From the IMG/VR virus record IMGVR_UViG_2880412407_000002: a stretch of DNA of 64,000 bases; one strand, given 5' to 3'. Below the pieces are notes generated by a model, which was not told the origin of the DNA, did no database searches, and saw only the letters and a list, made by a program, of their open reading frames with translations. Positions 63,328 to 64,000 of this stretch are shown piece after piece. The stretch is from a virus. Taxonomy: Duplodnaviria; Heunggongvirae; Uroviricota; Caudoviricetes. Positions within the stretch are counted from its first letter, which is position 1; every line of letters begins with the position of its first letter. The position numbers and the translations under genes are program-made.

Positions 63328-64000
63328 ATGGTTGTTGTCTGTTCAGTTATCATGGTTTGCTCCCCAATTAATATTTTTCTTGAAAAGGATACGTTGTCAC
63401 TTAAGCCCGGCTCAGTCGTTCTGGCCACCAAATGCATCAGGGCGCTTTTCCTTATGCATTATGGCAAAGTTAAAATTTTCGATATAAACCATTCCATAGT
63501 AAGTCAATATCTGGAAATTCAGCATAAGCTGACAAGAACTCATCTGACTGACGTTCCGCTTTATCTGTCACTGGAACCCAACAACCCTGCGTTGGCTGAG
63601 GCTTTAATTACCAGCCAGAGATTTTCCGGAGATACCACGGATATGTTTCTTATGATGGCATGCCTGTCGCTGTTTGAATCAGATGAACGGATATTATTAT
63701 TTTTAAGTGGATGTTTATCCAGTATAAGTGCCAAAGTCAGGGCGATAATTCAGACAGATATATCAGCAAGCTGGACGCTTGGTGCGATTGCGTTACGCCT
63801 GCATATGAGTGAGAGTTTGTTAAAGATAAAACTGAAAAATGAAGGGCACATGTTCAGTCGCTTGTTGCTGGAAGAGCGGATGCGTGTTGCTGTGAATATG
63901 TTATGTTCCCGGCATGGATATGGACAGGCTGTAGCAGAAAAATGCGGTTATTCAAGCTGGTCCTACTTTATTTCTGTATTTCACCGCTATTATGGCTTCC
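63328..64000 (+). CDS. AraC-family transcriptional regulator, 3'-truncated by the window edge
   Basis: Open frame from ATG 63328 to the window end with no stop; C-terminal AraC-type HTH (SWTLGAIALRLHMSESLLKIKLK...QAVAEKCGYSSWSYFISVFHRYYGF). Confidence 0.55.
   Translation, partial: MVVVCSVIMVCSPINIFLEKDTLSLKPGSVVLATKCIRALFLMHYGKVKIFDINHSIVSQYLEIQHKLTRTHLTDVPLYLSLEPNNPALAEALITSQRFSGDTTDMFLMMACLSLFESDERILLFLSGCLSSISAKVRAIIQTDISASWTLGAIALRLHMSESLLKIKLKNEGHMFSRLLLEERMRVAVNMLCSRHGYGQAVAEKCGYSSWSYFISVFHRYYGF

Follow-up and report, generated by a model that had tools for sequence, protein, structure and literature searches.

Two reviews list PatE, PsrA and PsrB as three prophage-borne AraC-like regulators of Escherichia coli O157:H7, and reviews give 90% identity between PsrB and PsrA. 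In O157:H7, PsrA represses LEE type III secretion by raising GadE and YhiF, of which GadE is a repressor that binds LEE promoters. A psrA deletion in O157 leads to increased type III secretion, and the PsrA/GadE arm is switched on following attachment (PMC10877973, PMC8565820, PMC4456613, PMC13502914). The systematic name "psrA (ecs1087, Sp4)" comes from the Tree laboratory in 2026, and psrA responds to HnrS in transcriptomes of strain Sakai (PMC13502914). Sequence-specific DNA binding and transcription activation have been reported in the literature for Psr proteins; in particular, reviews state that PsrB binds the hdeA and gadE promoters and raises acid resistance. The function of PsrA was measured in O157:H7, not in the background of the DNA analysed here, and the account of its mechanism comes from reviews and a single paper of 2026.

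The window, i.e., the whole stretch of 64,000 nucleotides that we analysed, contains two tandem lambdoid prophages (Table 1). Prophage 1 ends with the effector gene espK and prophage 2 starts with an integrase gene. From about 57.9 kb, prophage 2 carries the genes for an alpha/beta hydrolase, HokD, a DUF968 protein, RusA and the antiterminator Q, followed by those for a CPBP/CAAX protease, a 65-aa ORF and, at the very end of the window, the open frame that we identify as psrA. The alpha/beta hydrolase showed no significant similarity to the same-sized gene located beside patE in the Sakai prophage Sp1. The DUF968 gene exhibits a 1-nt deletion in an A run at about position 60598 when compared to strain 2014C-3599, and is split into two frames (59943-60704 and 60659-60991). 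This frameshift could be due either to prophage decay or to a homopolymer sequencing error.

Table 1. Coordinates of psrA, of its domains and expression signals, and of other features of the two prophages in the 64,000-nucleotide window.
Feature	Coordinates	Strand	Evidence
DNA methyltransferase gene, prophage 1	15139..16215	+	
espK effector gene, prophage 1	43756..45117	-	
Prophage 2	45688..64000		
Integrase gene, prophage 2	45929..46948	-	
Alpha/beta hydrolase gene	57962..58735	-	
DUF968 gene	59943..60991	+	
RusA gene	61004..61375		
Q antiterminator gene	61356..61736		Pfam PF06530
CPBP/CAAX-type intramembrane protease gene	61882..62706	+	
Terminator-like hairpin 3' of the CPBP gene	62848..62863		
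65-aa ORF, left flank of the cargo slot	62993..63190	+	ORF list; Pfam TrmB E 0.006, below cut-off
Intrinsic-terminator-like hairpin, GCCTTCAGTCCTGAAGGC + T run	63177..63204 (hairpin 63177-63194)	+	Terminator scan (L001 9478-9495)
Sigma-70 promoter-like site, ATGATA - 16 nt - TATAAT	63265..63292	+	10/12 consensus matches
psrA CDS, codons 1-224 of 237	63328..64000	+	Stop-free translation; identical-genome annotation; match to ECs_1087
N-terminal regulatory domain, residues 1-133, YdeO/AppY/PatE-like, beta strands then helices	63328..63726	+	YdeO profile, conservation, AlphaFold
C-terminal AraC-type DNA-binding domain, two HTH motifs, residues 134-233 (window ends at 224)	63727..64000	+	

The frame starts with an ATG and runs through 224 sense codons without any stop up to the last base of the window, a run whose probability of occurring by chance is about 8e-7 per frame with the local base composition. 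Translation thus agreed with the first-pass annotation, which had described an open frame of at least 224 codons, cut by the window edge and absent from the ORF list; the list lacks it because the listing tool omits ORFs running off the end of the source. The region 62700-64000 was 100% identical to several complete E. coli genomes (O121:H19 and related strains). In these genomes, the frame continues for only 13 codons past position 64000 and ends with TAA, giving a CDS of 714 nt encoding 237 aa. The expected extension beyond the last base of the window is ...CCCCCGGAT...TAA, which translates into FPPDRYVSRQGLDY-stop; these 13 codons were taken from the identical genomes and not read in the window. 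The PGAP annotation of strain 2014C-3599 contains the same 714-nt CDS, with the same ATG and the product WP_000261909.1. Extending the frame and searching by homology, as had been proposed, revealed neither an early stop nor a loss of the HTH domain.

The window protein completed by the 13-codon extension was identical over 237/237 residues to Sakai ECs_1087 extended to its upstream in-frame ATG, and over 195/195 residues to the part of ECs_1087 that is annotated. Prophage 2 is of the same type as the Sakai prophage Sp4 and exhibits 99.05% nucleotide identity with it over 18,326 nt (99% over 18.3 kb). In strain EDL933, the gene EDL933_RS06220, located in the hyaA-adjacent prophage, has the same accession WP_000261909.1 and an identical gene order. 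The complete match and the likeness to Sp4, together with the published name, therefore identify the frame as psrA of an Sp4/CP-933M-type prophage. The setting is also the one of psr genes: a lambdoid prophage 99% identical to Sp4, an effector locus (espK) in the neighbouring prophage, and a PerC/Pch-family gene 6.3 kb downstream of psrA, outside the window (L001 16679-16993). Judged from its sequence, the gene is the known and already characterised prophage regulator PsrA, and we found nothing that contradicts this identification. The interpretation of the frame as an AraC-type regulator in the first-pass annotation was thus supported.

One point of the literature disagrees with this position: reviews place PsrA at z1789 in OI-50 (CP-933N). 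The prophage adjacent to potC contained no AraC-type gene in the corrected EDL933 genome (L005, 1620000-1669999) or in Sakai (Sp6, L003), and neither did Sakai Sp10. In the corrected EDL933 genome, the AraC-type (Psr-like) genes that we found were one in OI-57 and one in the hyaA-adjacent prophage, which is of the CP-933M type. The z1789/OI-50 location probably reflects an error in how the EDL933 prophages were first assembled, or a numbering carry-over. The reading that Sakai is devoid of psrA was rejected, the gene being ECs_1087 in Sp4.

The two Psr-like proteins thus located in EDL933 are 90.7% identical, in line with the published value. PsrB (z2104, OI-57/CP-933O, EDL933_RS10010) has the same length as PsrA and differs from it by 22 amino acids. 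In a cluster look-up, PsrA-like and PsrB-like sequences shared a single 90% cluster, and the cluster names were uninformative. The psrB gene lies in the same slot as psrA, bounded by the 65-aa ORF and the tRNA genes, with a PerC/Pch-family gene downstream in the same prophage, but its locus differs by the type of antiterminator located upstream (DUF1133). The psrA loci of Sakai and EDL933 share with the window the succession Q, CPBP protease and 65-aa ORF, then ileZ-argN-argO. The window differs from these copies by its host background, its 100% DNA matches being O121:H19-type strains whereas Sakai and EDL933 are O157:H7, and by the position of prophage 2 in tandem behind another lambdoid prophage.

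The relationship with the other members of the family is more distant. PatE (CP-933H/Sp1, Sakai ECs_0287), a prophage-borne AraC-like activator of acid-resistance genes, shares with PsrA the N-terminal motif and the domain plan, but the two proteins are only 37% identical, which does not correspond to orthology, and patE resides in a different, degraded prophage. YdeO and AppY of strain K-12 could be aligned to PsrA over the full length, with 31% and 29% identity, respectively. YdeO activates gadE. The ydeO gene lies among chromosomal genes beside safA, with no prophage feature annotated, and appY lies in the cryptic prophage DLP12.

Prophage 2 carries psrA 3' of the Q antiterminator and 5' of the lysis genes, i.e., in the late region, as the first-pass annotation had placed it. 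In an identical genome, beyond the window, the tRNA genes start 29 nt after psrA, in the order tRNA-Ile (anticodon CAT; called Met by ARAGORN), tRNA-Arg (TCG) and tRNA-Arg (TCT). They are followed by TerB, a SASA-family esterase, the holin-lysozyme cassette, the PerC/Pch-family regulator and the terminase. A scan of the region between Q and the tRNA genes against Rfam retrieved nothing besides these three tRNA genes. The slot occupied by psrA, between Q and ileZ-argN-argO, is AT-rich: the GC content is 42% for psrA and 38% for the CPBP gene, versus about 53% for RusA and DUF968. The CPBP gene, located between Q and a terminator-like hairpin, looks like another cargo gene.

The promoter-like site located 36 nt 5' of the ATG (L001 9566-9593, window coordinates being shifted by +53699) was the top scorer of our regional scan and is a candidate promoter for psrA in the lysogen. 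The intrinsic-terminator-like hairpin found at the end of the 65-aa ORF is conserved in psrA loci and also occurs in the loci of psrB and of the phage phiSTEC1575-Stx2k, where the stem and the loop carry some substitutions; this hairpin would insulate psrA from upstream transcription. Over the 160 nt upstream of psrA, conservation between the psrA, psrB and phiSTEC1575-Stx2k loci amounts to 97%, TATAAT included. Such a gene with its own expression signals corresponds to the usual layout of phage cargo. A mini-ORF of five codons (ATG 63311, with a stop overlapping ATG 63328) was considered as a leader peptide and dropped, its ATG not being conserved in phiSTEC1575-Stx2k.

We propose that psrA would be transcribed in the lysogen from its own promoter, and that PsrA would raise the acid-stress regulators GadE and YhiF, leading to repression of the LEE operons and to less type III secretion after attachment. 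Upon prophage induction, late transcription would also read through psrA, because the gene lies downstream of Q, as for stx at the equivalent position. The suggestion that a prophage AraC regulator could rewire host virulence or stress regulons matches the published role of the identical protein. PsrA is a route by which a prophage takes over host acid-stress regulators, tuning type III secretion. Taken as a whole, this explanation, which includes the identity as PsrA, the domains, the cargo setting, the GadE/YhiF-LEE role and the predicted transcription from both its own promoter and late read-through, appears to us highly probable.

Alternatively, psrA could be intact but silent and inconsequential, H-NS-type repression shutting down AT-rich DNA in a decaying prophage, in which case it would rewire nothing here. 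The location of psrA at 42% GC within an AT-rich island would fit such a situation, and the 1-nt frameshift of DUF968 hints at decay of prophage 2. Yang and colleagues reportedly observed in 2015 that PsrB, unlike PsrA, improved acid survival in EDL933, which we counted in the same direction. Against silencing, 503 complete E. coli records carry the allele with a nucleotide identity of 99-100%; they span the major EHEC serogroups and include O157:H7, O121, O145, O111, O26 and O103 strains. The conservation of the promoter-like site and, in the literature, both the increase of type III secretion upon psrA deletion in O157 and the response to HnrS in Sakai also speak against it. We thus consider a silent psrA unlikely and favour an expressed regulator acting through GadE and YhiF.

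The protein itself has the characteristics of the AraC/XylS family, with a C-terminal domain of about 100 aa containing two helix-turn-helix motifs. The C-terminal AraC-type HTH mentioned in the first-pass annotation was recovered with Pfam above the cut-offs, both in the truncated product (HTH_AraC, 34.3 bits for a cut-off of 26.6) and in the full-length one (HTH_AraC, 35.3 bits for the same cut-off; HTH_18, 36.6 bits for a cut-off of 33.6). The top solved relatives were GadX, Rns, CsvR and ToxT. The best one was the DNA-binding domain of GadX (3mkl, E 1.4e-18), onto which the AlphaFold model superposed with an rmsd of 1.5-1.6 A and a TM score of 0.85-0.88, for 42% identity. Over the full length, the best structural matches were Rns, CsvR and ToxT. 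The best NCBIfam match was the YdeO profile (NF007407), aligned from position 1 to residue 229 with an E value of 8.7e-30. The score of 104.1 bits remained far below the equivalog cut-off of 348, and PsrA would accordingly be classified by profile and alignment as a YdeO-like paralogue, not as YdeO.

The AlphaFold model, obtained with a 13-sequence alignment (mean pLDDT 70), was confident for the DNA-binding domain and weak for the N-terminal domain, whose confidence was low to moderate (pLDDT about 45-70). Five strands were predicted within residues 5-53, with a pLDDT of about 60-70. Compared to the class formed by GadX, Rns, CsvR and ToxT, the N-terminal domain of PsrA is shorter and poorly modelled, and in this weakly modelled domain we found no evidence for a counterpart of the fatty-acid pocket of Rns and ToxT. 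It is quite unlikely, in our opinion, that this short domain, like those of Rns and ToxT, senses a small molecule such as a gut fatty acid, or that PsrA controls in non-O157 EHEC a regulon other than GadE/YhiF-LEE. If either were true, the cargo slot between Q and the tRNA genes would be a signal-responsive switch beside the stx-carrying site.

The start of the protein differs between databases. The Sakai record annotates ECs_1087 as a gene of 588 nt encoding 195 aa, and many database entries also have 195 aa (P0019, 955 members), which would correspond to a product starting at Met43 (ATG 63454), the first 42 codons being an untranslated leader. ATG 63328 is not preceded by a clear Shine-Dalgarno sequence, which could also favour the short form, but Met43 has no better ribosome-binding site. 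By contrast, PGAP gives 237 aa in both 2014C-3599 and EDL933. The protein sequence of residues 1-42 is conserved even in homologues that share only 37-40% identity, and M1, V3, C5, S6, K20, L25, G28, L32 and F41 do not vary across 13 homologues, the most distant of which is 40% identical. The start of PsrA can be aligned with those of YdeO, AppY and PatE (motif M..vCSVI), the alignment to the YdeO profile begins at position 1, and in the structural model beta strands 5-34 belong to the N-terminal domain. Synonymous and non-synonymous counts over codons 1-42 relied on only 2-3 differences. The choice between the two starts is indirect, because no clear Shine-Dalgarno sequence precedes either ATG; the long form starting at 63328 nevertheless appears better supported, and we consider translation from Met43 very unlikely.

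The value of the full-length frame lies in the correction of its annotation, since RefSeq only labels the product "helix-turn-helix domain-containing protein" and the start chosen in Sakai gives a truncated protein of 195 aa. This is an ordinary known gene that brings no new biology but deserves a corrected label.

The slot that contains psrA is occupied by other genes in related prophages. In the equivalent slot of prophage 1, we found a DNA methyltransferase gene preceded by a 65-aa ORF ending at position 14987. At about position 16754, an IS600 copy that is present in 2014C-3599 (L009 15523-16679) is missing from the window, whose source is therefore closely related to 2014C-3599 without being that strain. 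A DNA methyltransferase is present in the psrA slot in the ompW prophage of EDL933 as well, and many Stx-converting phages have a methylase gene after the 65-aa ORF and before the tRNA genes, just upstream of the stx site. These observations point to an exchangeable cargo cassette, carrying either psr or a methylase gene, that adjoins the position of stx. The 65-aa ORF, which is conserved and has a weak TrmB-like winged-helix match, is annotated 5' of psrA, of psrB and of the methylase alternatives. Many lambdoid and Stx prophages carry it 3' of their antiterminator gene, and the EDL933 copy has a frameshift. In PGAP annotations, it receives no functional name beyond "hypothetical protein" or "TrmB family transcriptional regulator".

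When a 1.5-kb psr locus was used as a query against 50,697 phage records, phiSTEC1575-Stx2k was the only one in which at least 80% of the query was matched. This complete Stx2k phage encodes a psr-like gene with 92% nucleotide identity, directly 5' of the tRNA genes and of the stx2k A and B genes (L013 4424-6747). A Psr-type regulator can therefore travel with Shiga toxin. This arrangement, together with the position of psrA at the head of the late region and immediately 5' of the phage tRNA genes, could suggest a regulator directed mainly at phage late genes, tRNA genes or lysis rather than at host genes, but we regard this as most improbable: many Stx phages have a DNA methylase, unrelated to PsrA, in this slot, so that its occupant behaves as exchangeable cargo and not as a core phage regulator, the published targets are the host GAD regulators, and the closest chromosomal relatives, YdeO and GadX, control the same host regulon.

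The psrA gene was present in 725 of the 5426 complete E. coli genomes, with a median of two copies per positive genome. The protein relatives retrieved from a large database all belonged to E. coli or Shigella.
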